This document shows, piece by piece, positions 8,777 to 46,860 of a stretch of DNA of 64,000 nt; the first letter of the stretch is position 1, and every line of letters begins with the position of its first letter. The position numbers and the translations under genes are program-made. The stretch comes from Mobula hypostoma (lineage: Eukaryota). The notes beneath the pieces are model-generated. The model did not search any database, was not told the DNA's origin, and was given only the letters and a program-made list of their open reading frames with translations. The DNA is taken from the NCBI RefSeq assembly GCF_963921235.1, contig NC_086097.1, positions 61,754,001 through 61,818,000 of the forward strand. The letters are read 5' to 3'.

Positions 8777-9522
8777 AGTGTTATGTTTGTTCTGGATAAA
8801 AGACAAACTTTGCATGGGTTTTCAAATGCTAGCAGATTTATTAACAATCATTATTTCTATTTTAACACTTTAGCACATGCTCCCAGTTCACCAATGTCCT
8901 TCCATTTCCAGCAGAATCGCCTGCATTGCACACTGGGAACTAAAGTTCTTTGTTGTGTACACATATAAAAACAGATCTTCCCCCTTTAAAGCAAAAAAAA
9001 ACACACCTTGTTTCTGTTCACAGGAAAATCTTTTTTTATATATATTATATTATATGTGTATGTGTGTATATATATAAAAAAAATGTGTATGTATAATCAC
9101 TGATTGAAGCATTTCCATGTATCAGTTAGGTTGCCAGTAAACAGCATAGCTGTGGGAGGACTTATTTTATCCATTGAGCTGATCTTTTAGGCTTTCACCT
9201 CAATTTCTTCCAAACAGTGTGCTGGCAACCTTTTTACGTCGGAACTTAGCGCCTCTTTCTTAGCCACTCACAGTATTCAGTTATACTTCATATTTAGACC
9301 TTGTGCTGACTTCTGACACCATGTTATGTTTTTTCTTGATAAAAACACAAATTTTACATGGGCTTTCAGATGCCAGCACATGTATTAACAATTACGGCTT
9401 CTAGCTCTGCACTTAAGCGCGCTCTCCTAGTTCACCAACGCCCTTCTGGTTTCCTGCTGAACTGCCCTGCATTGCATACTGCGAACTGAAGTTCTTTATT
9501 ATGTACACATATAATTACAGAG
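8777..9522 (+). repeat. Diverged ~200-bp direct repeat, copies ~8777-8975 and ~9321-9522
   Basis: Collinear blocks tgttatgttt..gataaaa..catggg.tttca.atgc.agca..tattaacaat..agttcaccaa..ctgcattgca..gaact.aagttcttt.tt.tgtacacatataa..acaga in both copies. Confidence 0.75.
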
Positions 9523-10502: not shown

Positions 10503-12259
10503 CTGAGGAAACATCACATGCTTGTGAAGTCACTCAAGTGGCTGAAAAGGTATGAGAACAGTTCAGGCTTATTAGGAATGAGTAAAGCAGCATTAAGGAA
10601 CATGGAAGAACTCTAAGCCATTCCTCCAGCTTCAGTCTCTCTGCCTCTTTGGTATGTCTTTTAAGTTTATAGGAATTATACCTGATTCTTGGAAATTGAT
10701 TGCTCTTTTTGATTTATGCTTTATCCTTTGTGTTTAAGAAATGGTTAAATCTTTTGGTTTTGGAAATGATTTGTGTTATAGAAATTGTCTGTAATTTGGA
10801 AATGTTTGGTAATGTTTCAGGATTGAAGATAATGATTTAATGATTCAAGATAAGCTAGAAATCCTCTGTAAGAATTGGGAAGTGTTTAAAATAGAAATCC
10901 TCTGTGAGTTTTAAATGTGTTTTAAGAGACTTGTGTGAATGCAAACGTCTATCATCATCAGGTGCCATGCCCAGTTTGAGCTTTGACTGCCATGGCCCAC
11001 ACACTCCTGTTTCCAATCAAGTGGATCAATTCATTGGTATTCATTTCCAGTTCTCCAGCTGTTGTTTCCATCATCATTTGTCTTTGTCTTCCTCTTGCTT
11101 TCTTCCCTTCAAACTTTCCCATAATTACCGTGCATTCCAACTCCTCTGTCCTAATCACGTCTAATGAAGTTACGTTGCCTTTTCATGATCTCATACATTA
11201 TTTCTCTTTTTGTGCTTGCTCTGTTCATGACATCCTCATTCGATATTCGTTTCGTCCATGATATTCTTTGCATCCTCCTCAAAATCCACATCGCTGCTGC
11301 TTCAATTTGTTTCCTCATGTTACTAGATGTTGTCCAACATTCTGAGCCATATAACATAAATGGATAAACATAACATTTCAGTACTCTGAGTGGGGTTGTC
11401 ATACCTAGTTTAGTGTTGGTCAGTATATTCTTCATTCTCATGAAGGCGTCTTTTGCCATCCCTATTCTTCTTTTGATATCCGTGTCACACCTGCCAACTG
11501 ATGTCACACAGCTTCCTAAGTAGCAAAAGTTCTGTACTTGTTTTATGTCTTCCCCATTTATTTTCAGCCTGCAGATAGGATTCTCCTTTTTTTTGGATAT
11601 TACCATACATTCTGTCTTTTTGTAATTGATAGATAGAACCAATTAAGTTTTGTAGTTCTTCCTCCGTACTTGCAATCAGCACAGTGTCATCCGCAGATCT
11701 AAAATTATTGATGTTTTCACTGCCAGCTTTGATTCCCAAGCTGTCTCTTATTTTTTGTAATATTGTTTCATTGTATACATGAAACAAAGCAGGGGAAAAA
11801 ACATACCCTTGTCTAAGCAGAACAAGTGCTACACATGCCCTTACACTTCCTCTCTCACCACCATTCAGGGCCCCAGACAGTCCTTCCAGATGAGGTGACT
11901 CTTCACCTGTGAGTCAGCTGGGGTGATATACTGCATCCAGTGCTCCCGGTGCGGCCTTCTATATATTGGCGAGACCTGACGTAGGCTGGGAGACCGTTTT
12001 GCTGAACACCTACGCTCTGTCCACCAGAGAAAGCAGGATCTCCCAGTGGCCACACATTTTAATTCCAAGTCCCATTCCCATTCTGATATGTCTATCGACG
12101 GCCTCCTCTACCGTCAAGGTGAAGCCACACTCAGGTTGGAGGAACAACACCTTCTATTCCGTCTGGGTAGCCTCCAACCTGATGGCATGAACACTGACTT
12201 CTCTAACTTCCGTTAATGCCCCACCTCCCCTTCGTACCCCATCCCTTATTTATTTATTA

Positions 12260-12935
12260 TGTAAAGGGGTTTCGACTTTTAAGTTACTGCGGAGGCTAAT
12301 TAAAATGACGTCTTTGTTATGTTAACCTGGGGAATGCGGCTTTATTGTGTTAAACGCTGAGAAAGTTTGCACTAGCACCTTATTTTGGTTTAGAGGATGA
12401 TAAGAAATACGTTATTAACCAATTGGGATAGTTGTTATGGTTTTGGTGTATTTGAAGATACTGTATGCGTGGGGTTTAGGGGCAGAAGGCGGGAGAGCGA
12501 GACAGAGGATGGACGAGGTGCTGTGAGTCCGCTAACGGGGTCGGACCCCGGCGGGACATTCGGCGAGGAAACGGAGACGGACTCGTGTGGAGCGTATGGT
12601 CCCAGGCGGCTGGTCGAGGTGGTCCGAGGGGGTCGCAGGGTGAAGAAGAAGGTCCTTGAGCTCCAACGGTTTTGTGCACGAAGAGATTGAACTTTGATAA
12701 ATGTGGCGCCTTTTATTTTCCTTTTATATTTTATTCTCTTTTAAATATATAGTTCCAGTAATATCTATAAACTGTATATCATTTAATTGCATCTGGTGTC
12801 TTGTCTGTTATTTGGGCGGGGTGGGGTACCTCACACAGCATCCACACAAACGAATTACCCAGTTTGGCGGGGCTGAGGCTGTTTCCCTAGATGACAGCGA
12901 GCCGAGCGACCCTGAGGGTGGCCAGGGGGGCTACA
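12260..12935 (+). repeat. 5' LTR
   Basis: TGTAAAGGGG...GGGGGGCTACA; by eye a few percent diverged from the 3' LTR, plus two reciprocal indels. Confidence 0.95.
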
Positions 12936-12938
12936 TTG

Positions 12939-12957
12939 TGGGGGCTTTGTCCGGGAT
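12939..12957 (+). promoter_or_regulatory. tRNA-Pro-type primer binding site
   Basis: TGGGGGCTTTGTCCGGGAT versus canonical tRNA-Pro PBS TGGGGGCTCGTCCGGGAT, 3 nt after the 5' LTR. Confidence 0.8.
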
Positions 12958-13179
12958 GCTTGAGTCTGCTGGTATGCTGTGTGGGTGCCCTGTTTAAATC
13001 TGTAATGTGTGTCTCTGTGGGTTATTTGCTGTTGATTGCTGTATGCGTTGTGGGTGCAGTCTTTGTTCGAGTTCAGGCTGGCATTGACGAGTTGGAGGTG
13101 GCACTCGGGGCTGTCCATGCAGTTGGGAGACAGAGGAAAGAATGGTCTGATTTGGAGGTAGAGTCTGCGAATAAATGTT

Positions 13180-14290
13180 CTAGCTCTGGCAGGCTCCGCC
13201 TGGCACTTGGGATATGTCCACCCCAAGAGGGGCGGAGACTAGCGAGACGTGGGCGGAGCGGATTCTCAGTTGTTAGATGAGTGGCAGTGCTCGGTTGAGG
13301 GAGAGCGACAGGGATTGGTTGAAAGTTTGAGTAGGCGGGCCCGTGACGGTGTTAGAGCTGTCAGGTTCACTTACACCGTAGTGACAGCTGTCAGTTATTT
13401 GAAAGAGGGGGGGAAGTTTTCAGTGTGTCTTCTCTGGCGAGGAGGGCGGCTAAATTGCTTGCAGTGCCAGGGGTATTATTTCAGGGGATCAGTTGTTCAG
13501 CTGATCAGAGAGGTGTCGGGAAACTTAGTGGAGGCCCAGTGGGGGAACGGCTTGAGGTCTCTGGGGAAGCACGTTCCCAGCAATGTACCAATGAACTTCC
13601 GAAAGGAAAAGACCCTATTCCTGAAGGCTTAGAGGGGCCACGCCCTAGGGTGTCGCTATGGATAGAGGGAAGCGATGCTAAAGCTATTCTCGGCCCCGGG
13701 GCACAGATCAAGTTGTTGTACAGTTCGTTTTACAACCGGTGTCTGAAGCATTTATCCTTGACAACCGCAAGGGCACCGGAGACTTTGGGTACCAGTGGCA
13801 GTAGTTATCCAGAAGACGATGATTGGTTAATGACCCTGGAGTTCATGAAGGCATTTTCTGGGCACCCAGCGTGTCGAGTTGCTTCTGAGGACGTGTGTAG
13901 CAGCCTTGAGCCGGTACCGAATTTAAACGAGACCCAGCGGTGGTACGGCCTGGGGAAAGTAGCTGAGGGTGAGACCCTCTTAGTAGATGCTCCGAACTAC
14001 CACGAGGGAGGGGAGTTGACCGCTGAAGACACTTCAGTGAGAGAGAGGTCGCGGCAACTGGACCCTAGCGGCGTGGAAGATGAAGGCAGCGTGTGTGTGG
14101 ATTCTGAGGAGGGCGGCTGTTGAACTGAAGATGGCCTTTACTAGTTCCCTAGGATTCTTCCGATCCGAAAAGATGCCCAAGGGCATATCCGGAGCCCCTG
14201 CATCCTTCCCGCGGGGCATGAGGAAGACCATGGGGGAAATGAAGGTGTGTGGAGTTTTGACGTATGTGGGTGACTGCCTAGAGCTTGGAT
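13180..14290 (+). pseudogene. Decayed Gypsy gag (PNMA-like capsid), aspartic protease and RT fragment
   Basis: [22 protein letters not shown] (PNMA/Ma-like gag); [24 protein letters not shown] (protease, catalytic DTG lost); AFTSSLGFFRSEKMPKGISGAPASF...VLTYVGD (RT, YxDD lost). Confidence 0.8.
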
Positions 14291-14450
14291 TCGCCTGGGG
14301 GAGGCGAGGTGAGTGGCTGAGCCCGGGCGACCGAAGCGAAGTGTCAAATGTGGAGGAGTTTTTGGCCGGTGGAGTTTGGTGCAATGTGAGGAAAATGACC
14401 CGACATACCAGTTGAACTTCCTGGTGTTGGGACAGACGGTGGTGGACCGG

Positions 14451-15080
14451 GGGATGGAAACTCAGGTCGTCAATTTGAATGAGACACAGAGAAGAGAGGG
14501 AATTTGCACCGCACTGCGGTCATATACTGATGAATTAATCCAGCGAGAAGAAACAATGACCCGCCTTCGAAGGGATCAGCAGAAACTCAAGACGTCGATT
14601 CAGGACAGATTGGAAGACTTGCAAGTTGGGGAAGATCAAGGAAGTGTTCTGACTAAGGTCAACAGAAAACCGAGAGCCCAGGGAGGGGAGTTTGACTACA
14701 CTCCCGAGGAGGTAAAGAAATGGAGGACAGATCTCGGGAAAGGGAGGCGGACGCTTGAAAGGAACCTGAAGATGCCCTATCGCAAGTTTAAATGAAGTGG
14801 AAAAACTGAAAGTTGACCTGGAAGACGTCATGAGGAAGAAACAACCGGAGGCTGAACATTCTTTAACTGCTGCTTTTCAGGTCAGGGTGGAAGAAGCTGG
14901 TGGGGTAACTGCATCCCAGGTTGAGATGGCCAGGAACCCTGAGTCAGAACTGCGGAGGCTGTGGCGAGAGTTGAAGGAGTCCCCGAAGAAGCTGACGTCT
15001 CGACTGCAGGAGGCTGAAGGGGTAGCCCCGGCTAAATGTTTCAGTTTGGAGAAACGTAAACAGCAGCTACCGATCGAGGG
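14451..15080 (+). pseudogene. Captured intronless sarcomeric myosin II heavy-chain rod fragments (MYH16-like)
   Basis: About 88 aa align without gaps to the recalled myosin S2 rod (LEDLQVGEDQGSVLTK vs [36 protein letters not shown] vs [20 protein letters not shown]). Further blocks: [14 protein letters not shown] vs LEEAGGATSVQIEM, and [24 protein letters not shown] vs KKLAQRLQEAE..AKCSSLEKTKHRL. One frameshift at ~14775. Confidence 0.85.
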
Positions 15081-15563
15081 AATGAGGAAGGATACGGATT
15101 CGAAGGATGATGTGCTGCACATGTGGAACATGCAGCCTTTCGCTAACTTCCCCTTGATTGAGGAAGAGACTTTTGGCTCTTCTCCCACTGAGTCAGGTGT
15201 AGTGGGGAGGGCTAGCTGTGGGCAGTCTGAGTTACGGCAGGATCAGAAAGGAGGAGGGGAGGGGCCCCGGACACGGGACAGGGGGCTCCGAGCTGTAGTG
15301 GCCTGAGTGAGAGAGGAGTTGGCAAGCAGGCTCGAGGTATCCCTGGTAGTGTCTGAGCCTTTTGGGTTTAGGTGAGGGGGTACGGAGGTCTCGGAGGGTT
15401 AAGAAGCTCCCAGATAGGTTGGCCTATGTAGCGCCCGTGGGACGGGAGTAAAGTCCACTGTTTGGGGAGCACTCTCACTGTGTGTATCTGTGTATGTGTG
15501 TGTTGTGTGTCTGCAGGACTGGTTGGCGAGTTATTTAGAAGACATGAGGACATGACTTTATTT

Positions 15564-15576
15564 GGTGGGGGGAGAG
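15564..15576 (+). promoter_or_regulatory. Polypurine tract
   Basis: GGTGGGGGGAGAG immediately upstream of the 3' LTR TG. Confidence 0.8.
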
Positions 15577-16233
15577 TGTAAAGGGGTTTCGACTTTTAAG
15601 TTCCTGCGGAGGCTAATTAAAATGGCGTCTTTGTTATGTTAATCTGGGGAATGCGGCTTTGTTGTGTTAAACGCTGGGAGAGTTTGCACTGGCAGCTTAT
15701 TTTGGTTTAGAGGGTGATAAGAAATACGTTATTAACGAATTGGGATAGTTGTTATGGTTTTGATGTATTTGAAGATACTGTATGCGCGGGGTTTTGGGGC
15801 AGAAGGCGGGAGAGCGAGACAGAGGATGGACGAGGGACATTCGGCGAGGAAACGGAGACGGACTCGTGTGGAGCGTATGGTCGACCACCGTTGTTGGTCC
15901 CAGGCGGCCGGTCGAGGTGGTCCGAGGGGGTCGCAGGGTGAAGAAGAAGGTCCTTGAGCTCCAATGGTTTTGTGCACGAAGAGATTGAACTTTGATAAGT
16001 GTGGCGCCTTTTATTTTCCTTTTATATCTTATTCTCTTTTAAATATATAGTTCCAGTAATATCTATAAACTGTATATCATTTAATTGCATCTGGTGTATT
16101 GTCTGTTATTTGGGCGGGGTGGGGTACCTCACAGAGCATTCACACAAAGGAATTACCCAGTCTGGCGGGGCCGAGGCTGTTTCCCTAGACGACAGCGAGC
16201 CGAGCGACCCTGAGGGTGGCCAGGGGGGCTACA
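15577..16233 (+). repeat. 3' LTR
   Basis: Direct repeat of 12260-12935, followed by TSD ATTA. Confidence 0.95.
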
Positions 16234-18991
16234 ATTATTATTTCTTTTTTTTCCCCCTTTTTTTCTCTCTTTTTTCTCCCTCTGTCCCTCTCACTATAAC
16301 TCCTTGCCCATCCTCTGGGCTTGCCCCCCCCCACCTTTCTTTCTCCCCTGGCCTCCCGTCCCATGATCCTCTCCCTTCTCCAGCCTGGTTTCCCTTTTGC
16401 CAATCAACTTTCCACCCCTCCCCTCCTGTCTTCTCCTATCATTTTGGATCTCCCCCTTCCCCTTCCACTTTCAAATCTCTTACTATCTCTTCTTTCAGTT
16501 AGTCTTGACTAAGGGTCCTGGCCCAAAACGTCGATTGTACCTTTTCCTATAGATGCTGCCAGGCCTACTGTGTTCCACCAGCATTCTCTTGATTTTCGTA
16601 AACTGACTCAATTCTCCATCTATTCTTACAGTGGCAGTTTGTTCCCAGTACAGATTTCTGATTAGGTGGAGGTCTTTCGAATCTAGATCTAGAGCTTCCT
16701 GTAATATTTCAAATAAATTATTGTGCCTCACTTTATCAAATGCTTTTGTGTAGTCAATAAAACAAACAAACAAATCTCTTTGCACTTGAATATCTCATTC
16801 TGATAGTATCCTTAACATCAATATCGCACTTATTGTACCTTTGTCTTTCACAAAACCACGTTGTTCTTTACCTATTTCAGCTTGTAGTTTACTTTTAGCT
16901 CTTGTCATCAAAATTCTTAGAGTATCTAGTGATATGACTCATTATTAGGAATAATAATCCAAGTTTATTAGAAAGAGTGATAAATACTGATTTTTTCATA
17001 TCTTCTGGTACTATTCCAGTCTCATAAATGTCATTGATTAAATCAGTAAGTTTTTCAATTCCATAATCTTCAAGGGCAATAATTTGTTCTATTACTAATT
17101 CATCAGGACCTGTTGCCTTTCCTTTTTTCATCTTATTTATAGCATTACGAACTTCAGATTTTAAAATACTTGGACCTTCAATGTTCTTCTTAATTTCTGG
17201 CTTTTCGCCTCAATCATATTCTAACAATTCCTGAATATACTCAGTCCATCTGTTCATAATCTCATCTTTTTCCATGGTAATGGTACCGTCCTTTGCTTTC
17301 AAACATCCACCTGAAGAACAGAGGAGTTTTTTACTAGTGATATTCTTGATTTGTAGATTTACCCTTTTTGGATCAGTAATAGGGATTCTTTCTAGTTGCT
17401 CACATTCCTGATTTAACCAGTCTTCTTTGGTTTTTTGACACAGGCTTTTAACTTTTTTATCTAAGGATGTATATTCTATAGGATTTGCTTTCTTCAGTCT
17501 CCTTTCTTCCAGTAGATTTCTGACTTAATTTGTCATCCATTTATCCTTTGTGCTTTTTTTCTTTTTTAGGAATCACTGACTTTGCTGATTCTACCAAGGC
17601 ATCTTTCAGAGAGTTAAACTTCATTCTACATGATTGCTATCATTTTCAACAGATTCTATTTCTAGACTTGGAAATCTGTTCCTTACTTCAATTGTAAATT
17701 TTTGACTTAAGTTTCCATCTTTAATTAATTGCGAGTAGTCAAGGGATTGTTCAGGTTTTTGCTTATTTAGTTTTTTAAGTTTTACTTTGACATGACATAT
17801 TACTGGTTTATGGTCACTATTATAATCTGTACCTGGATATGTTTCACATTGAGTCACTGAGTTTCTAAATCTTTGGATTATAGTTATCAAGTCAATTTGA
17901 TTTTGGGTGTTATTACCTGGACTCTTCCAGGTCCACAGGTGTCTTGGATGGTTTTTAAAATAGGTATTCAATATGACCTGATTATTCATCTTGCATCATT
18001 CTACCCATTTCTCACCTCTTTCATTTCTTTCCCCTAGTCCAAATTTTCCTATGGTATTTCCATTAGCACCTTGTCCTACTTTAGCATTTATATCTCCCAT
18101 GACAATAACCATATCTTGAGATTTGCATCCAAGATTTGCTTGTTCAAGCTGTTCATCGACTTTATATCCTCATTTGTTCCATCTACTGTTGGTGCATATA
18201 CCTGTATAATTGCTAAATCAAATGGTTGTCCTGTGAATCTAACAAGAAGCACTCTTTCTGATATTGCCCAATGTCCTAAAACACTTTTTGCCATGTTTTC
18301 ATCCTTAAGAATTCCTACTCCATTAGCATGGGATGTTCCACAAGAATAAATTAGTGTTTTAATAGTATTCTAACATGTTCCAGCACCTATCCAACGAACT
18401 TCACTAATTGCCATGATGCTAATTTTTAGTCTTTCCATTTCATTTATCACACTGTCCAATTTTCTTGCTTGATATAGGGTTCTTACATTCCAATTCCAAT
18501 TCCAATTCATAATTTTCTTTTGTGTTACAGGTTTCCCCCATTATCTGAAGGTACAGCGTTCCTATGAAATGATTCGTAAGTCGGAATGTTGTAAAGTGAA
18601 TAAGCAATTACCATTTATTAATATGGGAAAAATTTTTGAGCGGTCCCAGACCCAAAAAATAACCTACAAAATCATGCCAAATAACACATAAAACCTAAAA
18701 TAACAGTAACATTTAGTAAAAGCAGGAATGATACGATAAATACACAGCCCATATAAAGTAGAAATACTTTTCTGCAGCACTGTCTAGCGCAGCAAAAATC
18801 TCGCAGAAGCGCTCACGGCAGAAACACGGCGCAAGCACTCTCAATAGAAACAGTCTGTCTGGTAACCTTTAAGCTATGAAGCTGCCAAATCATACCAAAT
18901 AACACATAAAAATACACAGCCTATATAAAATGGAAATAATGTACGTACAGTGTAGTTTCACTTACTGGAATCGGGAAGATTCCAATAAACT

Positions 18992-19231
18992 TCAAAGTTG
19001 CTGGTGAACCTAGCAGGTCAGGCAGCATCTCTAGGAAGAGGTGCAGTCAACGTTTCAGTCCGAGACCCTTCGTCAGTACTAGGCGTTAGACCCTTCATTA
19101 GTCCTGACGAAGGGTCTCGGCCTGAAACGTCAACTGCACCTCTTCCTAGAGATGCTGCCTGGCCTGCTGCGTTCATCAGCAACTTTGATGTGTGTTGCTT
19201 GAATTTCCAGCATCTACAGAATTCCTGTTGT
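18992..19231. mobile_element. Palindromic Penelope terminal-repeat insertion with 12-bp TSD
   Basis: 90-bp inverted arms 18992-19081 and 19099-19188; TSD TTCCAATAAACT at 18980-18991 and 19232-19243. Confidence 0.85.
19100..19135 (+). ncRNA. Minimal type I hammerhead ribozyme-like motif of the Penelope terminus
   Basis: AGTC-CTGACGA-AGGGTCTCGGCCT-GAAA-CG-TC-AACT: conserved CUGAnGA and GAAA cores, short helix II, palindromic ACGU helix III; antisense copy at ~19045-19081. Confidence 0.55.
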
Positions 19232-23702: not shown

Positions 23703-23756
23703 TAACTTCTCATGATGACATGTACCTATATTCTCACGATTTTGAGCAATTGTAAG

Positions 23757-24344
23757 TGTAATGGTGTCTTAGTAATGTTTCACTGCTAAGGCTAATGTAA
23801 TGGCTTATCTGTAATGTTCACTGCTGAGATAACGGTTTCTTTGTAGCAGCAATGTTTGGGTTATGGTTGGAGATAACAGGACCTGTAGTATGCATGTTGG
23901 CCAATTGGAGATTGTTGTTTTGTCTTGTGTATCTGGAAAGGATGTTGTTTTCACGGTCTCTTGTCGAGGAGAGAGGAAGAGGGGGGACGCGTGTGGTGAG
24001 AGCTGGTAGACCACCAGACGGATTGGACTGGGATCTGAGGATCCAAAGATCAGCGACGCTTGGAGTAGACTGATGGTTGAAGAATGACTACTGAGTGAGC
24101 TCCAACGTGACTTTGACTTGACTTGGGCCCTTTTTATTATTTTCAGTACTAACCCTATACTCAGATTAAGATTCATAAACTTCAGTCATTTAATTGCGTA
24201 TGGTGTACTGTCTGATATTTTGTGTTGTGGGTTTGTAACTGGGGGTACATTACACAGTATCCACACAGACGCGATTACCCAGTTTGGAGGGGCCAAAGGC
24301 TGTTTCCCTCAATGAACAAGAGCTGGGCGAGCCTGAGGGTTACA
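23757..24344 (+). mobile_element. Solo LTR related to the 12260-16233 family
   Basis: TGTAA...TTACA ends; imperfect TSD TAAG/CAAG; U5 ccacaca..gattacccagtttgg.gggg...ggctgtttccct...cctgagggt shared with the 12260 LTR. Confidence 0.75.
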
Positions 24345-35619: not shown

Positions 35620-37057
35620 CTGACACTTATCATTGAGAAGTTACAGAACTTGGGCCTCTGTACTTCCCTCTTCAATTGGATCCTCAACTTCCTAACCAGG
35701 AGACCAGAATATGTGCAGATTGATGATAACATCTCCTCCTCACTGATAATCAACACTGGTGCACCTCAGTTGTGTGTGCTTAGCCTACTGCTCTACTCTG
35801 TCTATACCCCTGACTGTATGTCTAGGCATAGCTCAAATACCATCTATAAATTTGCTGATGATACAACCATTGTTGATAGAAACTCAGATTGAGACGAGAG
35901 GGTGTACAGGAGCGAGATATGCCAACTAGTGGAGTGGTGTTGTAGCAACAACCTTGCTCTCAACATCATTAAGACGAATGAGCTGATTGTGGACTTCAGG
36001 AAGGACAAAACGAAGGAACGCATACCAATCCGCATGTAGGGATCAGAAGTGGAGAAATTGAGCAGCTTCAAGTTCCTGGGTGTCAAGATCTCTGAGAATC
36101 TAACCTGGTCCCAACATATCAATGCAGTTATAAAAAGGCAAGACAGTGGCTATACCTTATTAGGAGTTTGAAGAGATTTGGTATGTCAACAAAAACACTC
36201 AAAGACTTCTACAGATGTACCGTGGAGAGCATTCTGACAGGTTTCATCACTGTTTGGTGTGGAGGGTGGGGATGTGGGGGGCTATTGCATAGGGCTGAAA
36301 CCGCTGCAGAAGGTTGTAAATTTCAGATCCATCTTGGGTACGAGCCTACAAAGTACCCAGGACATCTTCAAGGAGCAGTGTCTCAGAAAGGCAGCAACAA
36401 TTATTAAGTACCCCCAGCACCCAGGGCATGCCCTTTTCTCAATGTTACCATCAGGTAGAAGGCGCAGAAGCCTGGAGGCACAGACTCAATAATTCAGAAA
36501 CAGGTTCTGCCCCTCTGCCATCCGATTCCTAAATGGACGTTGAACCTGTGAACACTACCTCACTCTTTTAATATATATTATTTCTGTTTTCGCAAAATGT
36601 TTAGAATCTATTTAATATATGTATACCGTAATTATATACTGTACGAGGATGTCATGAACAGAGCAAACACAAAAAGAGAAATAATGTATGAGATCATGAA
36701 AAGGCAACATAACTTCATTGGACATGTGATTAGGAAAGAGGAGTTAGAATGCATGGTAATTATGGGAAAGATCGAAGGGAAGAAAACAAGAGGAAGACAA
36801 AGACAAATGACGATGGAGACAGCAGCCAGAGAACTGGGAAATGAATATCAATGAATTGATCCACTTGACCCGGAACAGGAGTGTGTGGGCCATGGCAATC
36901 AAAGCTCAAACTGGGCACGGTACCTGATGATGATGATGATGATGCTGTAATTAAATTACTTATTACTTACTTCAAAATTATGTATTGCATTGAACTGTTA
37001 CTGCTAAATTAATAAATTTCACGACACATGCCGGTGATAATAAACCTGATTCTGATT
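35620..37057 (+). mobile_element. Rex1/Babar-type LINE 3' half, interrupted by an RTE fragment
   Basis: NWILNFLTRRP, TGAPQ..VLS, KFADDTT, FYRCTVESILT, HPGHALFSMLPSGRR; tail aataaacctgattctgatt. Confidence 0.85.
36644..36944 (+). mobile_element. RTE 3' fragment (same family as 10931-11816) with 5-bp TSD
   Basis: EDVMNRANTKREIMYEIMKRQ; (TGA)n tail; CTGTA at 36639-36643 and 36945-36949. Confidence 0.85.
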
Positions 37058-37099: not shown

Positions 37100-37817
37100 C
37101 TTCCTCACCACGGTTCAGGGTCCCAAACAGTCCTAGCAGCTGAGACTACACTTTGCCTGCAAGTCTGTCAGGGCCACCTATTGTATCTGATTCTCTAACT
37201 GTAGTCTTCTCCACATCAGTTAGACCCAACAGAGACTGGGTGACTATCCTGTTGAGCAACTTGCCGCAGTCTGCCAGAAAAGCAGGATCTTGTGATGGCC
37301 ATTCATTTCAACTTCTCTTTCAATTCCAATTGTGACTTGTCTCTCCATGGGCTCATTTACTGCGATTTAGGTCAAATGCAGGTTGGAGGAGCAACATCTC
37401 ATAGTCCATCTGGGTAGCCTCCAACCTGATGCTAGAAACAATGTTTTTTCTAACTTCTGCTAATTACTCCCCTTCCCCCTTCTCTCTTTTCTCCATTCTC
37501 CTTTCTGTTTACCCTCTCACTTGCCCATCACCTCCCTCTGGTCCACTGTCATCTCCTATTGGATTCCTTCTTCCTCATTATTTTACCTCTTCCACCTATC
37601 AACTCCCAGCTTGTCATTTCACTTTTTCTCTCACCTGGTTTCACTTATCACCTGCTAACTTGTACTCCTTCTCCTTCCCCCAGCATCTTATTCTGGCCTC
37701 TGACCCTTTTCCCTTCCAGTACCAATGAAGGGTCTCAGCTTGAAGCATTGATTGTTCATTCCCTTCCATAGATGCCGCCTGATTGCTGAGTTTCTTCAGC
37801 ATTTTCTGTGTGTTGCT
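37100..37817 (+). mobile_element. Decayed Penelope GIY-YIG and 3' fragment
   Basis: cagggtcccaaacagtcc...ggttggaggagcaacatctc...ctgggtagcctccaacctgatg homologous to 11866-12190; terminal aatgaagggtctcagcttgaag. Confidence 0.8.
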
Positions 37818-38200: not shown

Positions 38201-40763
38201 AGGGATCGACATCCGTAAAAGGGTCAGAGATTTCAGCTGTAAAGGCTGCTTTATTTACTAGTTAACAAAAAATAAACAGTGGAAGAGCAGATTAACAGGT
38301 TTAAGGATAGAAACTCTTTAACAACATTGTGCAGGACTTTGCTTTCAGAATCTGTAATGTATGGATGTATTTCTTTTAGAGCAATGACCCCCCACCTTAG
38401 TACTTTGTATTGATCTGTTGTCTGCGCATGTACATTGTTCTCTCTCTCTTGCTGCAATGTGAATACACCAGTTAAAGCCACTTCCTGTGAGCCATGCTTT
38501 TATTTAGTGATACGTAGTTGTGCACAGACACAACAAATTGGCGACAAGTACGGACTCGAATGTCAGGAAATAATATGAACTGCACCGATAGTTACAGGAT
38601 GAAACAGCTCAGTAACAGAGAAAGGCACACTGAATTTAAAGTGAAAATAACGTGGCAATGGCTTCAGTCGGGAAAGTTGACAAATTTGATAGCACTAATG
38701 AAGGCTGAGAGTCGTATATCGAGAGGGTTGAACTGTACTGTAACATGAACAATGTGGAGGAGCAAAAGGAAACTCCTATGCTTCTTTGCTTAATGGTGCA
38801 AAGATGTAAAGTCTCTCACACAACTTAGTGACCCCTGAAAAGCCAGCAAGCAAGATGTTCAATGAAATTTTCACCTAAATCCTAAATCCCTAGCAATAGT
38901 TGAGAGACCTAGATTTTATAAAAGGAACCAGTCAAAAGATGAAAGCATTTCTGAACACATTGCAGAATTGTGCAAACTTTCCCAGTACTGTGACTTTAGA
39001 GATAGACTTTTCGATGCATTAAGGGACAGGCTTGTATGTGACATGAACAGTCAAAGCACTCAAAAGATGCTAATATCTGAAAGAAACCTAATCATAGAAC
39101 AAGAATTGACTAATACAGTTAGAGACTGCAGCAAAGGATGCAACAGAACTACAGAAATGGAGGCTAGAATGCGAAATGCACAAAATGACCCTGAAAAGTG
39201 CAAAAAAGCCAAAGGTGTTAAAAATGAGGCAAGAGGCAAATCCTCCCATGATGCAAATGACTTGGTTCAAAGAAAAAGTCACAGACAATGTAACATAGAG
39301 CGACAAAGAGCACAGCTGAATGAAAAGTCTCAAACACAAAACTAAGCAAATGCATGAAGTTACTGAATGTAGAACAGAATCAGACAACATAGAGATGGGA
39401 AAGGTAAATTGACATCCCTAGGACTGTAGAGTATTACTGAAGTAGATCACAAAATCATCTGGCTCACAATAGACATGTCTGGTGTAAAACTGAGCATAGC
39501 ACTGGATACAGGGTCAGCTTTGTCCACGATTCTAGAGTCTGACAACAGAATGTTTCCTAAGATACCATTAGAGAAGACCTCTGTGATGCTAAGGACTTAA
39601 ATGTAAACTGAAAATAAATGTGACTATGGAGGCCGAACACTGAAGTTAGAGATTTATGTACTGAAAAGTGGAGGGTCAGCACTTTTCGGACATGAATGGT
39701 AGAGAAAATTCCAACTAGACTGCCACTAAATCAGCAGGCAACGCCAGTCCAAATGGTAGCACTAACCAGAGACTGGTGCAGCTGCTTAATGCTAATGAGA
39801 AAGTGTTTGAGAAGGGAAATGATAAACTCAAAGACATGAAGGCCAGAATTGAACAGGATGAAACCGCAACACCAAGATTCCACAAAACACATCTAGTGCC
39901 TTATGCATTATGTACTAAAGTGGACGCTGAACTACAGAGCTTGGAGGCATCTGGAATTCTCTCTAAGGTTGAGTGGAAGGATTGGGCCATGCCTGTTATC
40001 CAGGTGATCAATGGCTGGAGCCACTGGCAAATATGGAAATTCCAAGTTGAGCATCAACCTTGTGCTGCGTACTGTGCCGTATCCCCTGTCAAAAAAAGAA
40101 GACAATTTTGCATCTTTGGAAGAGGGTTTCAAAGGAGTCAAGCAAGGAGTTCCTCACAAACAACACATGCAAAGGGCTGTTCCGGTACAATCATCTCATC
40201 TTTGGCATCACATCAGCTTCAGCAATTTGGCAAACAGCAATAGACCAAGGGCTTTAAGATCTCCCAAGAACACAATATTACCTTGATGACAAAAAAAAGG
40301 ACAGAAATCCTGCTTCGGGTTTAATTCGGAGAAGGAAGTCTGAGAATCGGAGCAGGAGTGCGAATGAAGCCATTTTTGAATTTTTCGGGTTTTTTTTCCA
40401 TCGGCGTTCAGAGAGGCGGGACTGCGAAGATGTGTGACATCGGGCAGTGAAGCGCAGAAGATTTAAAAGGAAGAGAGTCTTATACAGCGGGCTGTAGAGT
40501 GAGCCGGGAGCAGAGTGAAGGCTTAAGGGCTTCGGCTCAACGGGCTTAGGCGGAAACGGGCGAGGCGAGGAAGGTTTGGTATTCATTTTTTGTTGTTATT
40601 GGAGGAGAGGGGAAGTATGAGTGTGAAGGCAGTTTGTTGTTCTCGATGCCTCCCGAACATCCACAGCTGCGCCAAGTGCACCGAGATGCAGCTCCTAAGG
40701 GACCGCGTTAGGGAACTGGAGCTGTAGCTCGATGACCTTCGTCTGGTCAGGGAGAGTGAGGAG

Positions 40764-41501: not shown

Positions 41502-43815
41502 AATGGTTGGGGGGTGGGAATCAAATTAAAGAGACTAGGAGAGAGGAGGTTATTTCACAACAGGGGGATGGGAACAAGTGCAGAGAGACAGAGGGGTGTA
41601 AAATGAGGATAGAAGCAAAAAGTAGTAAGGTGAAAAGTAAAAGTGGCAGGCCAGCAAATCCAGGGCAAAAATCAAAAAGGGGCACTTTTCAACATAATTG
41701 TATAAGGGCTAAGAGTGTTGCAAAAGCGAGCCTGAAGGCTTTGTGTGACAATGCAAGGAGCATTCGTAACAAGGTGGATGAATTAAAAGTGCAGATTGTT
41801 ATTAATGAATATGAAATAGTTGGGATCACAGAGACATGGTTCCAGGGTGACCAAGGATGGGAGCTCAACATTCAGGGATATTCAAGATTCAGGAGGGATA
41901 GACATGAAAGAAAAGGAGATGGGGTAGCATTGCTGGTTAGAGAGGAGATTAGCACAATAGAAAGGAAGGACATTAGCCAGGAGGATGTGGAGTCGATATG
42001 GGTAGAGCTGCATAACACTAAGGGGCAGAAAACGCTGGTGGGAGTTGTGTACAGGCCACCGAACAGTAGTAGTGAGGTTGGGGGTGGTATTAAACAGGAA
42101 ATTGGAAATGCGTGCAATAAAGGAACAGCAGTTATAATGGGTGACTTCAATCTACATATAGATTGGGTGAAACAAATTGATAAGTGTGCTGAGGAAGAGG
42201 ATTTCTTGGAATGTATGCGGGATGGTTTTTTTGAACCAACATGTTGAAGAACCAACTGGAGAGCAGGCTATTCTAGACTGGGTATTGAGCAATGAGGAAG
42301 GGTTAATTAGCAATCTTGTCGTGAGAGGCCCTTTGGGTAAGAGTGACCATAATATGGTGGAATTCTTCATTAAGGCGGAAAGTGACATAGTTAATTCAGA
42401 AACAACGGTTCTGAACCTAAAGAAGGGTAACTTTGAAGGTATGAGACGTGAATTAGCTAAGATAGACTGGCAAATGACACTTAAAGGGTTGATGGTGGAT
42501 ATGCAATGGCAAGCATTTAAAGATCGCATGGATGAAATACAACAATTGTTTATCCCAGTTTGGCAAACTAGAATAAATCAGGGAAGGTAGTGCACCCGTG
42601 GATGACAAAGGAAATTAGGGATAATATCAATTCCAAAGAAGAAGCATACAAATTAGCCAGAAAAAGTGGCTCACCTGAGGACTGGGAGAAATTCAGAGTC
42701 CAGCAGAGGAGGACAAAGGGCTTAATTAGGAAGGGGAGAAAAGGTTATGAGAGAAAACTGGCAGGGAACATAAAAACTGACTGTAAAAGCTTTTATAGAT
42801 ATGTAAAAAGGAAAAGACTGGTAAAGACAAATGTAGGTCCCCTGCAGACAGAAACAGGTGAATTGATTATGGGGAGCAAGGACATGGCAGACCAATTGAA
42901 TAATTACTTTGGTTCTGTCTTCACTAAGGAGGACATAAATAATCTTCTGGAAATAGTAGGGGACAGAGGGTCCAGTGACATGGAGGAACTGAGTGAAATA
43001 CATGTTAGTAGGGAAGTGGTGTTAGGTAAATTGAAGGGATTAAAGGCAGATAAATCCCCAGGGCCAGATGGTCTGCATCCCAGAGTGCTTAAGGAAGTAG
43101 CCCAAGAAATAGTGGATGCATTAGTGATAATTTTTCAAAACTCTTTAGATTCTGGACTAGTTCCTGAGGATTGGAGGGTGGCTAATGTAACCCCACTTTT
43201 TAAAAAAGGAGGGAGAGAGAAACCGGGGGATGATAGACTGGTTAGCCTAACTTCAGTGGTGGGGAAAATGCTAGAGTCAGTTATCAAAGATGTGATAACA
43301 GCACATTGGAAAGCGGTGAAATCATTCGACAAAGTCAGCATGGATTTGTGAAAGGAAAATCATGTCTGACGAATTTTATGAGGATGTAACTAGTAGAGTG
43401 GATGAGGGAGAACCAGTGGATGTGGTATATTTGGATTTTCAAAAGGCTTTTGACAAGGTCCCACACAGGAGATGAGTGTGCAAACTTAAAGCACATGTTA
43501 TTTGGGGTAAGGTATTGATATGGATAGAGAATTGGTTGGCAGACAGGAAGCAAAGTGTGGGAATAAATGGGACCTTTTCAGAATGGCAGGCAGTGACTAG
43601 TGGGGTACCGCAAGGCTCAGTGCTGGGACCCCAGTTGTTTACAATATATACTTATGACTTAGACGAGGGAATTAAATGCAGCATCTCCAAGTTTGCGGAT
43701 GACATGAAGCTGGGCGGCAGTGTTAGCTGTGAGGAGGATGCTAAGAGGATGCAGGCTGACTTGGATAAGTTAGGTGAGTGGGCAAATGCATGGCAGATGC
43801 AATTTAATGTGGATA

Positions 43816-45312
43816 ACATAGAAACATAGAAACATAGAAAATAGGTGCAGGAGTAGGCCATTCGGCCCTTCGAGCCTGCACCGCCATTTATTATGATCAT
43901 GGCTGATCATCCAACTCAGAACCCAGCCTTCCCTCCATACCCCCTGACCCCTGTAGCCACAAGGGCCATATCTAACTTCCTTTTAAACATAGCTAATGAA
44001 CTGGCCTCAACAGTTTGCTGTGGCAGAGAATTCCACAGATTCACCACTCTCTGTGTGAAGAAGTTTTTCCTAACCTCGGTCCTAAAAGGCTTCCCCTCTA
44101 TCCTCAAACTGTGACCCCTCGTTCTAGACCTCCCCAACATCGGGAACAATCTTCCTGCATCTAGCCTGTCCAATCCCTTTAGGATCTTATACGTTTCAAT
44201 CAGATCCCCCCTCAATCTTCTAAATTCCAACGAGTACAAGCCCAGTTCATCCAGTCTTTCTTCATATGAAAGACCTGCCATCCCAGGAATCAATCTGGTG
44301 AACCTTCTTTGTACTCCCTCTATGGCAAAGATGTCTTTCCTCAGATTAGGGGACCAAAACTGCACACAATACTCCAGGTGTGGTCTCACCAAGGCCTTGT
44401 ACAACTGCAGTAGTACCTCCCTGCTCCTGTACTCGAATCCTCTCGCTATAAATGCCAGCATACCGTTCGCCTTTTTCACCGCCTGCTGTACCTGCATGCC
44501 CACTTTCAATGACTGGTGTATAATGACACCCAGGTCTCGTTGCACCTCCCCTTTTCCTAATCGGCCACCATTCAGATAATAATCTGTTTTCCTATTTTTG
44601 CCACCAAAGTGGATAACTTCACATTTATCCACATTAAATTGCATCTGCCATGAGTTTGCCCACTCACCCAACCTATCCAAGTCACCCTGCATCCTCTTAG
44701 CATCCTCCTCACTGCTAACACTGCCACCCAGCTTCGTGTCATCCGCAAACTTGGAGATGCTGCATTTAATTCCCTCATCCAAGTCATTAATATATATTGT
44801 AAACAACTGGGGTCCCAGCACTGAGCCTTGCGGTACCCCACTAGTCACCGCCTGCCATTCTGAAAAGGTCCCGTTTATTCCCACTCTTTGCTTCCTGTCT
44901 GCTAACCAATTCTCCACCCACACCAATACCTTACCCCCAATACCGTGTGCTTTAAGTTTGCACACTAATCTCCTATGTGGGACCTTGTCAAAAGCCTTTT
45001 GAAAATCCAAATATACCACATCCACTGGTTCTCCCCTATCCACTCTACTAGTTACATCCTCAAAAAATTCTATGAGATTCGTCAGACATGATTTTCCTTT
45101 CACAAATCCATGCTGACTTTGTCCGATCATTTCACCGCTTTCCAAATGTGCTGTTATCACATCCTTGATAACTGACTCCAGCAGTTTCCCCACCACCGAC
45201 GTTAGGCTAACCGGCCTATAATTCCCCGGTTTCTCTCTCCCTCCTTTTTTAAAAAGTGGGGTTACATTAGCCACCCTCCAATCCTCAGGAACTAGTCCAG
45301 AATCTAACGAGT
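43816..45312 (-). mobile_element. Young 5'-truncated CR1 inserted antisense into copy A of the same family
   Basis: Reversed (TTTCTATG)n tail at 43816; host sequence ...gtggataa | gtgaggttatccac... rejoins across it. Confidence 0.93.
43916..45274 (-). CDS. Open CR1 ORF2 fragment: reverse transcriptase domain and C-terminus (452 aa, no APE)
   Basis: [38 protein letters not shown]; no stops. Confidence 0.8.
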   Translation of the reverse strand: MANVTPLFKKGGREKPGNYRPVSLTSVVGKLLESVIKDVITAHLESGEMIGQSQHGFVKGKSCLTNLIEFFEDVTSRVDRGEPVDVVYLDFQKAFDKVPHRRLVCKLKAHGIGGKVLVWVENWLADRKQRVGINGTFSEWQAVTSGVPQGSVLGPQLFTIYINDLDEGIKCSISKFADDTKLGGSVSSEEDAKRMQGDLDRLGEWANSWQMQFNVDKCEVIHFGGKNRKTDYYLNGGRLGKGEVQRDLGVIIHQSLKVGMQVQQAVKKANGMLAFIARGFEYRSREVLLQLYKALVRPHLEYCVQFWSPNLRKDIFAIEGVQRRFTRLIPGMAGLSYEERLDELGLYSLEFRRLRGDLIETYKILKGLDRLDAGRLFPMLGRSRTRGHSLRIEGKPFRTEVRKNFFTQRVVNLWNSLPQQTVEASSLAMFKRKLDMALVATGVRGYGGKAGF

Positions 45313-46860
45313 GAGGTTATCCACTTTGGTGGCAAAAACAGGAAAACAGATTATTATCTGAATGGTGGCCGATTAGGAAAAGGGGAGGTGCAACGAGACC
45401 TGGGTGTCATTATACACCAGTCATTGAAAGTGGGCATGCAGGTACAGCAGGTGGTAAAAAAGGCGAATGATATGCTGGCATTCATAGCAAGAGGATTCGA
45501 GTACAGGAGCAGGGAGGTACTACTGCAGTTGTACAAGGCCTTGGTGAGACCACACCTGGAGTTTTGTTAGCAGTTTTGGTCCCCTAATCTGAGGAAAGAC
45601 ATCCTTGCCATAGATGGAGTACAAAGAAGGTTCACCAGATTGATTCCTGGGATGGCAGGACTTCAAATGATGAAAGACTGGATCGACTAGGCTTATACTC
45701 GTTGGAATTTAGAAGATTGAGGGGCGATCTTATTGAAACGTATAAAATCCTAAAGGGATTGGACAGGCTAGATGCAGGAAGATTGTTCCTGATGTTGGGG
45801 AAGTCCAGAACGAGGGGACACAGTTGGAGGATAAAGGGGAAGCTTTTTAGGACCGAGATCAGGAAAAACTTCTTCACACAGAGAGTGGTGAATCTGTTGA
45901 ATTCTCTGCCACAGGAAACAGTTGAGGCCAGTTCATTGGCTATATTTAAGAGGGAGTTAGATATGGCCCTTGTGGCTAAAGGGATCAAGGGGTATGGAGG
46001 GAAGGCAGGTACGGGGTTCTGAGTTGGATGATCAGCCATGATCGTACTGAATGGCGGTGCAGGCTCGAAGGGCCGAATGGCCTACTCCTACACCTATTTT
46101 CTATGTTTCTATGTTTCTATCATGACTGACAAGAATGATGAAGAGGATCTCCAGTACCTTGCTAAAGTGCTTACCAGACTGAGTGAGTATGGTCTGCGTG
46201 CAACGAGAGAGAAATGTGAGTTTTTCTAGAACAAAATTTCATATCATGGTCATGCCATTGACAAGCATGGCTTACGTAAGACACAAGAATACTGAAGCAG
46301 TGCTACAGGCAACCAAACTGGAAAATGTGTCACAACTCAGGACACACTTGGGCTTGTAAACTACTACCACAGGTTTCTCCCAAACTTTTCTACACTGTCG
46401 CATCCATTGAATGCACTGTTACAGACAGGAGCAAAGTGTCAAAGGTCAGAAAGATGTGAAAGAGCATTCAAGGAAACAAAGAGACTAAAAACATCTGATG
46501 AACGGCTCACCCATTATGACCCATCCATGCCCATCAGACTGCCGTGCGATACGTCCCCTTACGGCTTTGGAGCTATTTGTCACACATTGCGAAAGATGGA
46601 TCTGAATGCCCTATTGCGTTTTCTTCAAGATCACTGGTAATAAAGATGTTCCACCACCTCCTCTAGGGGCAAAAGTTTACACTTGTAACAGGTCAACAAC
46701 CCCTTGTGTCCATCTTCAATCTTAAGGGATTTCCAGTGATGCCTGCTACCTGGTTACAAGGTTGGGAACTGTTCCTAGGAGCCCACTCTTATGACTTAGA
46801 GTTCAAGGGTACCAAACCACACAGCAATGCTGATAGCTTGTCTCGTATTGCACTATTGGC

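Follow-up and report, generated by a model that had tools for sequence, protein, structure and literature searches.

Introduction

Long terminal repeat (LTR) retrotransposons can switch template onto a co-packaged mRNA, which is an established route to LTR chimeras, and such chimeras can be recopied as non-autonomous elements (Tan et al. 2016, PMC5131818). Here we describe a chimera of this kind from the ray Mobula hypostoma. It lies at 12260-16233 of a 64,000-nucleotide (nt) stretch of contig NC_086097.1 (61,754,001 to 61,818,000, forward strand), the whole of which we call the window. The locus is a Ty3/Gypsy-type LTR element in which the 3' half of pol was swapped for a multiply deleted fragment of a sarcomeric-myosin rod. 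As in the described LTR-mediated retrocopies, a piece of host mRNA replaces part of the internal open reading frames (ORFs) between two LTRs, and the ray family, too, was recopied as a non-autonomous element. Those retrocopies are young and few in copy number, whereas the ray chimera is old, falls into nested subfamilies and is present in order 10^3 copies (PMC5131818).

A second close system is the mouse IAP 1-delta-1, a non-autonomous, internally deleted LTR element with a single fused gag-pol ORF. The fusion acts in cis yet needs Gag and Pol in trans, and the element outdoes its helper in activity (PMC6466679, PMC7411935). It is a class II endogenous retrovirus without host cargo and with a demonstrated cis effect (PMC6466679, PMC7411935). 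The ray family differs in being Gypsy-type, in a fusion that ends in myosin and in the neutral drift of its residues, and for it we only infer a cis effect. The primary paper on IAP 1-delta-1 is reportedly that of Saito et al. 2008. High copy number through borrowed enzymes is also described for the pairs ETn/MusD, MaLR/MERV-L and VL30/MLV (PMC6466679), and maize Bs1 is an LTR element bearing pieces of host genes (PMC5131818). In these cases the helper is known, while that of the ray family is putative.

We conclude that the element very probably belongs to a non-autonomous Ty3/Gypsy family of myliobatiform rays that captured myosin and was amplified in trans. It is a real, large and old example of a known capture mechanism, with the apparent retention of its open frame as a twist. 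Among vertebrates, it is also a large instance in which an LTR element captured a gene and was then amplified en masse. Our literature searches, in which preprints were covered by their main text, returned no paper on a Gypsy-myosin family of rays, though a preprint supplement could list the repeat. Myosin is unmentioned in the main text of a mobulid genome preprint. A preprint on vertebrate retrocopies ties them to non-LTR elements and, in the passages covered, names SUDS3 and not myosin for the cartilaginous fishes.

The element and its myosin cargo

The features of the element are collected in Table 1. Over 639 aligned bases the two LTRs show 24 substitutions, of which 17 are transitions (Kimura two-parameter distance, K2P, 3.9%), and they differ further by indels of 36 nt and 17 nt. 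An earlier note on this DNA, made from its letters alone, had described a pair only a few percent apart with CpGs retained, and both descriptions hold. In the LTRs the observed/expected CpG ratio is 0.96 and 0.99, against 0.40-0.75 in the interior, 0.39 and 0.48 in the flanks and 0.35 in the window; 5 of the 24 substitutions lie in CpG context. The note had also found the target-site duplication (TSD), primer-binding site (PBS) and polypurine tract (PPT) recognisable. The PBS-like tract and the PPT are indeed correctly placed beside the LTRs, and we take the former to resemble a tRNA-Pro site. The TSD is weak evidence since both ATTA 4-mers sit within an AT microsatellite. No Rfam family matched in 11000-18000.

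Table 1. Features of the Gypsy-myosin element and its insertion site (window coordinates).
Feature	Position	Strand	Remarks
Insertion host, Penelope-like GIY-YIG repeat fragment	11854..12233, resumes ~16238-16590	+	GIY-YIG E 1.8e-4
Left TSD copy	12256..12259	+	ATTA, 4 bp; weak, AT microsatellite
5' LTR	12260..12935	+	676 nt, TGT..ACA
PBS-like tract	12939..12957	+	
PNMA-like gag remnant, deleted	13176..13632	+	Pfam PNMA E 0.053; aligns with gag part of Hypanus model P0017
Protease (PR) remnant, partly deleted relative to P0017	13401..13853	+	60% identity to P0017 119-269
Linker from PR to start of reverse transcriptase (RT) remnant	13845..14102	+	private deletion and frame break ~14102
RT core remnant	14104..14453	+	relatives match Ty3 RT 114-243 (E 6e-11) and RVT_1
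Myosin rod piece 1	14454..14880	+	residues ~913-932 joined to ~976-1100; frame break 14776
Myosin rod piece 2	14881..14976	+	residues ~1150-1185
Myosin rod piece 3	14977..15078	+	residues ~1380-1415
C-terminal tail, element-derived	15079..15306	+	in frame with myosin; in 13 of 23 chimera models
PPT	15564..15576	+	
3' LTR	15577..16233	+	657 nt, TGT..ACA
Right TSD copy	16234..16237	+	ATTA; weak, AT microsatellite

The element family has Ty3-like RT and gag features. The PNMA-like gag is weak in the window copy, where its frame breaks near 13214 and 13263, and clearer in relatives (E 2e-4). The match of P0017 is confined to the stretch of Ty3 RT given in Table 1, and the matches of the chimera models to PNMA and RVT_1 fall below the Pfam curated cut-offs. 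The protease site (13683-13700) reads GPG at ~13692 and the RT core reads YVGD at 14263, both as claimed, and a frame break and a stop follow at ~14296-14310. The complete set of PR, RT, ribonuclease H (RNase H) and integrase of an autonomous Ty3/Gypsy element is absent from the ORFs and models scanned: neither the window ORFs nor the chimera models matched the RNase H and integrase families of Pfam. The final 70 nt of 14104-14453 may be a scrap of RNase H, although the library search gave no match to it, and a short stretch taken as a candidate integrase tail had no library match either. The tail, which has no Pfam match, is probably the end of pol.

The claimed myosin piece is a real match. 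The window aligned to MYH4 residues 976-1065 over 90 ungapped residues (E 2e-6) and to MYH7 ~1380-1410 (E 0.003), and a sister model aligned to MYH7 913-1070 (E 5e-9). In that gene model ~155 residues are colinear. The cargo may be free of introns relative to its multi-exon parent. The parent gene is probably MYH16. RefSeq labels three of the chimera models myosin-16-like, and 9 of the 10 models with hits scored mostly higher against P0009, an unnamed myosin that we take to be MYH16-like, than against MYH7. MYH16 has 42 predicted exons and is expressed in shark jaw muscle (PMC6402096).

The cargo is not a continuous proline-free coiled coil. It consists of three joined pieces, and the 207-residue myosin piece of the window contains 7 prolines. 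All five sisters examined have 6-8, and two true myosin rods have 0. The identity of the cargo to the available myosins is 29-38% at the protein level, and it drifted by ~40% between subfamilies. The ESM Atlas returned generic coiled-coil matches only, all under 0.9. Judged by its sequence, the captured myosin is a passenger.

Other repeats enclose the element. The Penelope-like host fragment, of which a second copy lies at 37104-37482, is itself embedded in a minus-strand long interspersed element (LINE) whose ORFs flank both sides. The region 10950-18500 thus has three levels, with the LINE outermost, the Penelope-like fragment within it and the Gypsy-myosin element innermost. The LINE end of this nest has a 91% identical copy at 36645-36934.

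An old family with order 10^3 copies

The earlier note had predicted a multi-copy family and had named single-copy junctions as the finding that would speak against it. We fetched 26 proteins, of which 23 are RefSeq chimera models. Two more are true myosins, and the last, the 54-aa peptide P0003, was left out as unrelated, having no match to the window. The chimera models come from M. birostris (5), M. hypostoma (5), Hypanus sabinus (12, two of them isoforms of one locus) and Hemitrygon akajei (1) and lie on many scaffolds. The RT-to-myosin junction of the window was found in four M. birostris models and the myosin-to-tail junction in 13 of the 23, and the closest models are 92-97% identical to the window copy. 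On these models, the family is one of myliobatiform rays and an old chimera that spans four species and three genera. Scans of metagenome and viral contigs gave no relative of the element.

We then read copy number from sequencing contigs. Run X1 consists of contigs of the window's species: across 334 and 309 nt of flank they show 0 differences, at a depth of ~15. In each of the 13 interior bins its summed depth lay between 20,000 and 44,000, and the median of 28,051 amounts to 1,424-1,870 times the flank depth. Because contig depth is not a copy number, we take this as an order-of-magnitude reading only, of order 10^3 copies in M. hypostoma. The prediction of many copies is thereby borne out, and the junctions are not single-copy, as they recur in the models and the depth is high and flat across the interior. 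The depth is flat from gag through PR, RT and myosin to the tail; therefore close relatives of the retroelement parts are no commoner than the myosin part. The LTR bins were 4.8-13.5 times as deep as the interior, where 2 times would be expected, which means that solo LTRs or elements with other interiors share the LTR.

Could the copies have arisen by duplication at the DNA level from one old chimera? The sequence examined holds no further full-length copy flanked by a TSD of its own, which fits this explanation. However, LTRs that are 96% identical surround an interior ~45% diverged from other subfamilies, and the element is inserted into another repeat with matching 4-mers at its ends. The flank past the host repeats is also near single-copy depth (19.7), against ~28,000 in the interior. 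We consider this origin highly improbable.

The earlier note suggested that the element could supply myosin-homologous transcripts or small RNAs; if the myosin piece acts as RNA, these would regulate the host myosin gene. The number of copies would suit such a role, and several Hypanus loci have multiple RefSeq isoform accessions, which may hint at transcript support. Silencing RNAs from retrocopies are known in moths (PMC9674220). The low identity of the cargo to the myosins at hand and its drift between subfamilies speak against it, since with such divergence a long, near-perfect complementarity to a host mRNA is unlikely. In run X12, which we only guess to be RNA, the interior had ~1/135 of the X1 depth. 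The neighbouring LINE bins showed similar ratios (1/99-1/118), so the depth in X12 says nothing on transcription either way. Overall, we regard a regulatory role as improbable.

The models also bear on annotation. RefSeq names P0005 glutathione S-transferase theta-2 isoform X1 and P0017 transmembrane protein 192 isoform X1; both align to the element over almost their full length. From the alignments, these names would reflect either mis-annotation or element-driven isoforms of the host loci. Since models encoded by the element are named as myosin-16-like and as isoforms of GSTT2 and TMEM192 in RefSeq, they may inflate myosin counts in rays.

Most of the decay predates the insertion

The comparison with sister copies indicates that the capture of myosin and most of the decay are older than the insertion in the window, as the earlier note had argued. 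The sisters share the replacement by myosin and, when compared with other subfamilies, also have the deletions within gag, PR, RT and myosin in common. The order of events follows from the sharing of the big deletions, of the loss of RNase H and integrase and of the 7 prolines. The first catalytic aspartate of RT is lost in all three Mobula sisters. In a tree of the RT core (17 rows), a stem of 0.43 lies beneath four tips of 0.03-0.04. Residues private to the window copy, when compared with all covering sisters, number 12 of 424, or ~1.4% per base, which is near half the LTR distance (1.9%).

The two motif changes that had been put forward as signs of decay before insertion turned out not to be so. 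Private to the window copy are the YxDD change, where 100% of X1 depth (41 contigs) is unlike the window, and that at the first position of the protease motif, where 99.4% is. Both YxDD aspartates are kept in two of the three Mobula models. The protease aspartate is absent from all eight Hypanus models that cover the site, a lesion shared within the Hypanus subfamily. Most frame breaks of the window copy also look private. Among the indels listed, at least 67%, 72% and 84% of X1 depth is unlike the window at three of the four breaks and at least 39% at the fourth. Among the differences that were listed, 9 of the 17 that fall in frames are synonymous, an excess (p ~0.03) on which we did not rely; the tally covers 40 of the 303 differences, and the protein comparison shows missense changes outside these 40.

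The private motif changes are what would be expected if the element had been autonomous when it inserted and had decayed in place, for example by local hypermutation. This is refuted by the shared lesions: private change accounts for merely the 12 residues, and the deletions and the myosin cargo are common to copies and species. We leave it next to no probability.

Proposed amplification with borrowed enzymes

We propose the following course of events. During reverse transcription, an ancestral element would have changed template to a MYH16-like mRNA of sarcomeric myosin that was packaged with it, and then back, so that a rod fragment came to stand where most of RNase H and integrase had been. 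The pattern of nested deletions, different for each subfamily in gag, PR, RT and myosin, indicates that the chimera then diverged. A degenerate master of the window's subfamily would have yielded the many copies observed, relying on its own LTR, PBS and PPT in cis while a related element supplied RT, RNase H and integrase in trans. The window copy later acquired its ~1.4-2% of private changes, including frame breaks and the two cited motif changes. Since RNase H and integrase are missing, the family would have to borrow its enzymes.

Several points weigh against parts of this account. The autonomous partner that the earlier note proposed to look for was not found in two protein searches, both weak: the tail search gave 0 among 51 candidates and the RT search among 576 returned only the chimera. 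The parentage of MYH16 stands on three RefSeq labels and a modest score edge, the ray parent was not among the sequences compared, and for P0010 and P0013 the bit scores, which lie within 3 bits, tie or reverse the order. A microsatellite surrounds the TSD, and the copy number comes from contig depth. Two indels in the gag region find support in only 39% and 67% of the depth. The continuous frame from gag to myosin, described below, is seen in Hypanus models only, while the window's subfamily is that of Mobula, and the test of open frames uses RefSeq models that are themselves picked for long ORFs.

Open frames despite drift

Five Hypanus models (647-729 aa) run through gag, PR, RT and myosin in a single frame, three of them with 729 aa, and the Mobula models have an open frame of 430-450 aa. 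We compared P0005 with P0017, which differ at 146 of 322 residues (~45%). The mean BLOSUM score of the differences was -0.51, against a neutral expectation of -0.39 to -0.46 and +0.27 for a real pair of myosins. There were 0 stops where ~8.8 would be expected (Poisson 2e-4). Window positions 13401-14102, a stretch not picked for an ORF, differ from P0017 at 90 of 234 residues, again with 0 stops (5.4 expected, 0.005). The expectations come from a crude model, and the pairs depend on one another.

These results suggest that selection may keep the fused frame open. Given the ORF-picked models, the dependence between pairs and the crude model, we put this tentatively, at somewhat under an even chance. 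Master lineages would then have been selected for an open fused frame and not for its residues, because a translated, Gag-led fusion could aid its own RNA. The advantage may lie in packaging in cis by the Gag fusion; escape from nonsense-mediated decay is an alternative driver for an open frame. In its full form, the reading is that a Gypsy lineage parasitised a helper across the stingray and devil-ray radiation, that translatability itself was selected while residues drifted neutrally, and that myosin served as an in-frame stuffer. We offer this full form with a little more reserve still. If the open frame is selected, it shows how helper particles remain accessible to non-autonomous LTR elements, and if translatability is truly the selected trait, thousands of dated copies would allow its direct measurement.

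The same family, mobilised in trans in the same way, could show open frames by chance and ascertainment, without selection on translation. Every sister protein is a RefSeq gene model, the substitution spectrum is neutral-like and the window copy has about five frame breaks, all of which fit this explanation. Less easily accommodated are the absence of stops in the window stretch that was not ORF-picked, the sister depth that is mostly unlike the window at three of the four listed breaks, and the long open frames in two separately amplified subfamilies, those of Mobula and Hypanus. Chance is a serious candidate nonetheless, to which we assign nearly an even probability.

A gag-myosin fusion domesticated to serve the host would also account for the 729-aa ORFs in three Hypanus models and for models filed as isoforms of host genes. 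The neutral-like replacements and the prolines in the rod argue against it, as does the low-confidence predicted structure of P0002 (pTM 0.21). Furthermore, there are many dispersed copies and not one conserved locus. We give domestication very little credence.

Other repeats in the window

An older solo-LTR-like sequence lies at 23751-24344. It has 72-74% identity to the 3' part of the myosin element's LTR and near-matching flanking 4-mers, and would belong to a related Gypsy family. Fragments of another LTR element, broken up by CR1 copies, lie at 38866-40243 and 46296-46640, and an RNase H-like match (E 7e-8) was found within that element at 46296-46637. Between them, 43140-46120 is a CR1-like LINE with a large inverted duplication, the arms of which are 92-96% complementary; an RT frame of 466 codons runs on the minus strand. 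At 18983-19197, a 99-nt inverted repeat (89% complementary) is formed by a common short repeat that occurs twice in opposed orientation, situated in a Tc5/Tigger-like remnant. A local duplication of ~200 nt with 78% identity links 8779-8975 and 9322-9521.

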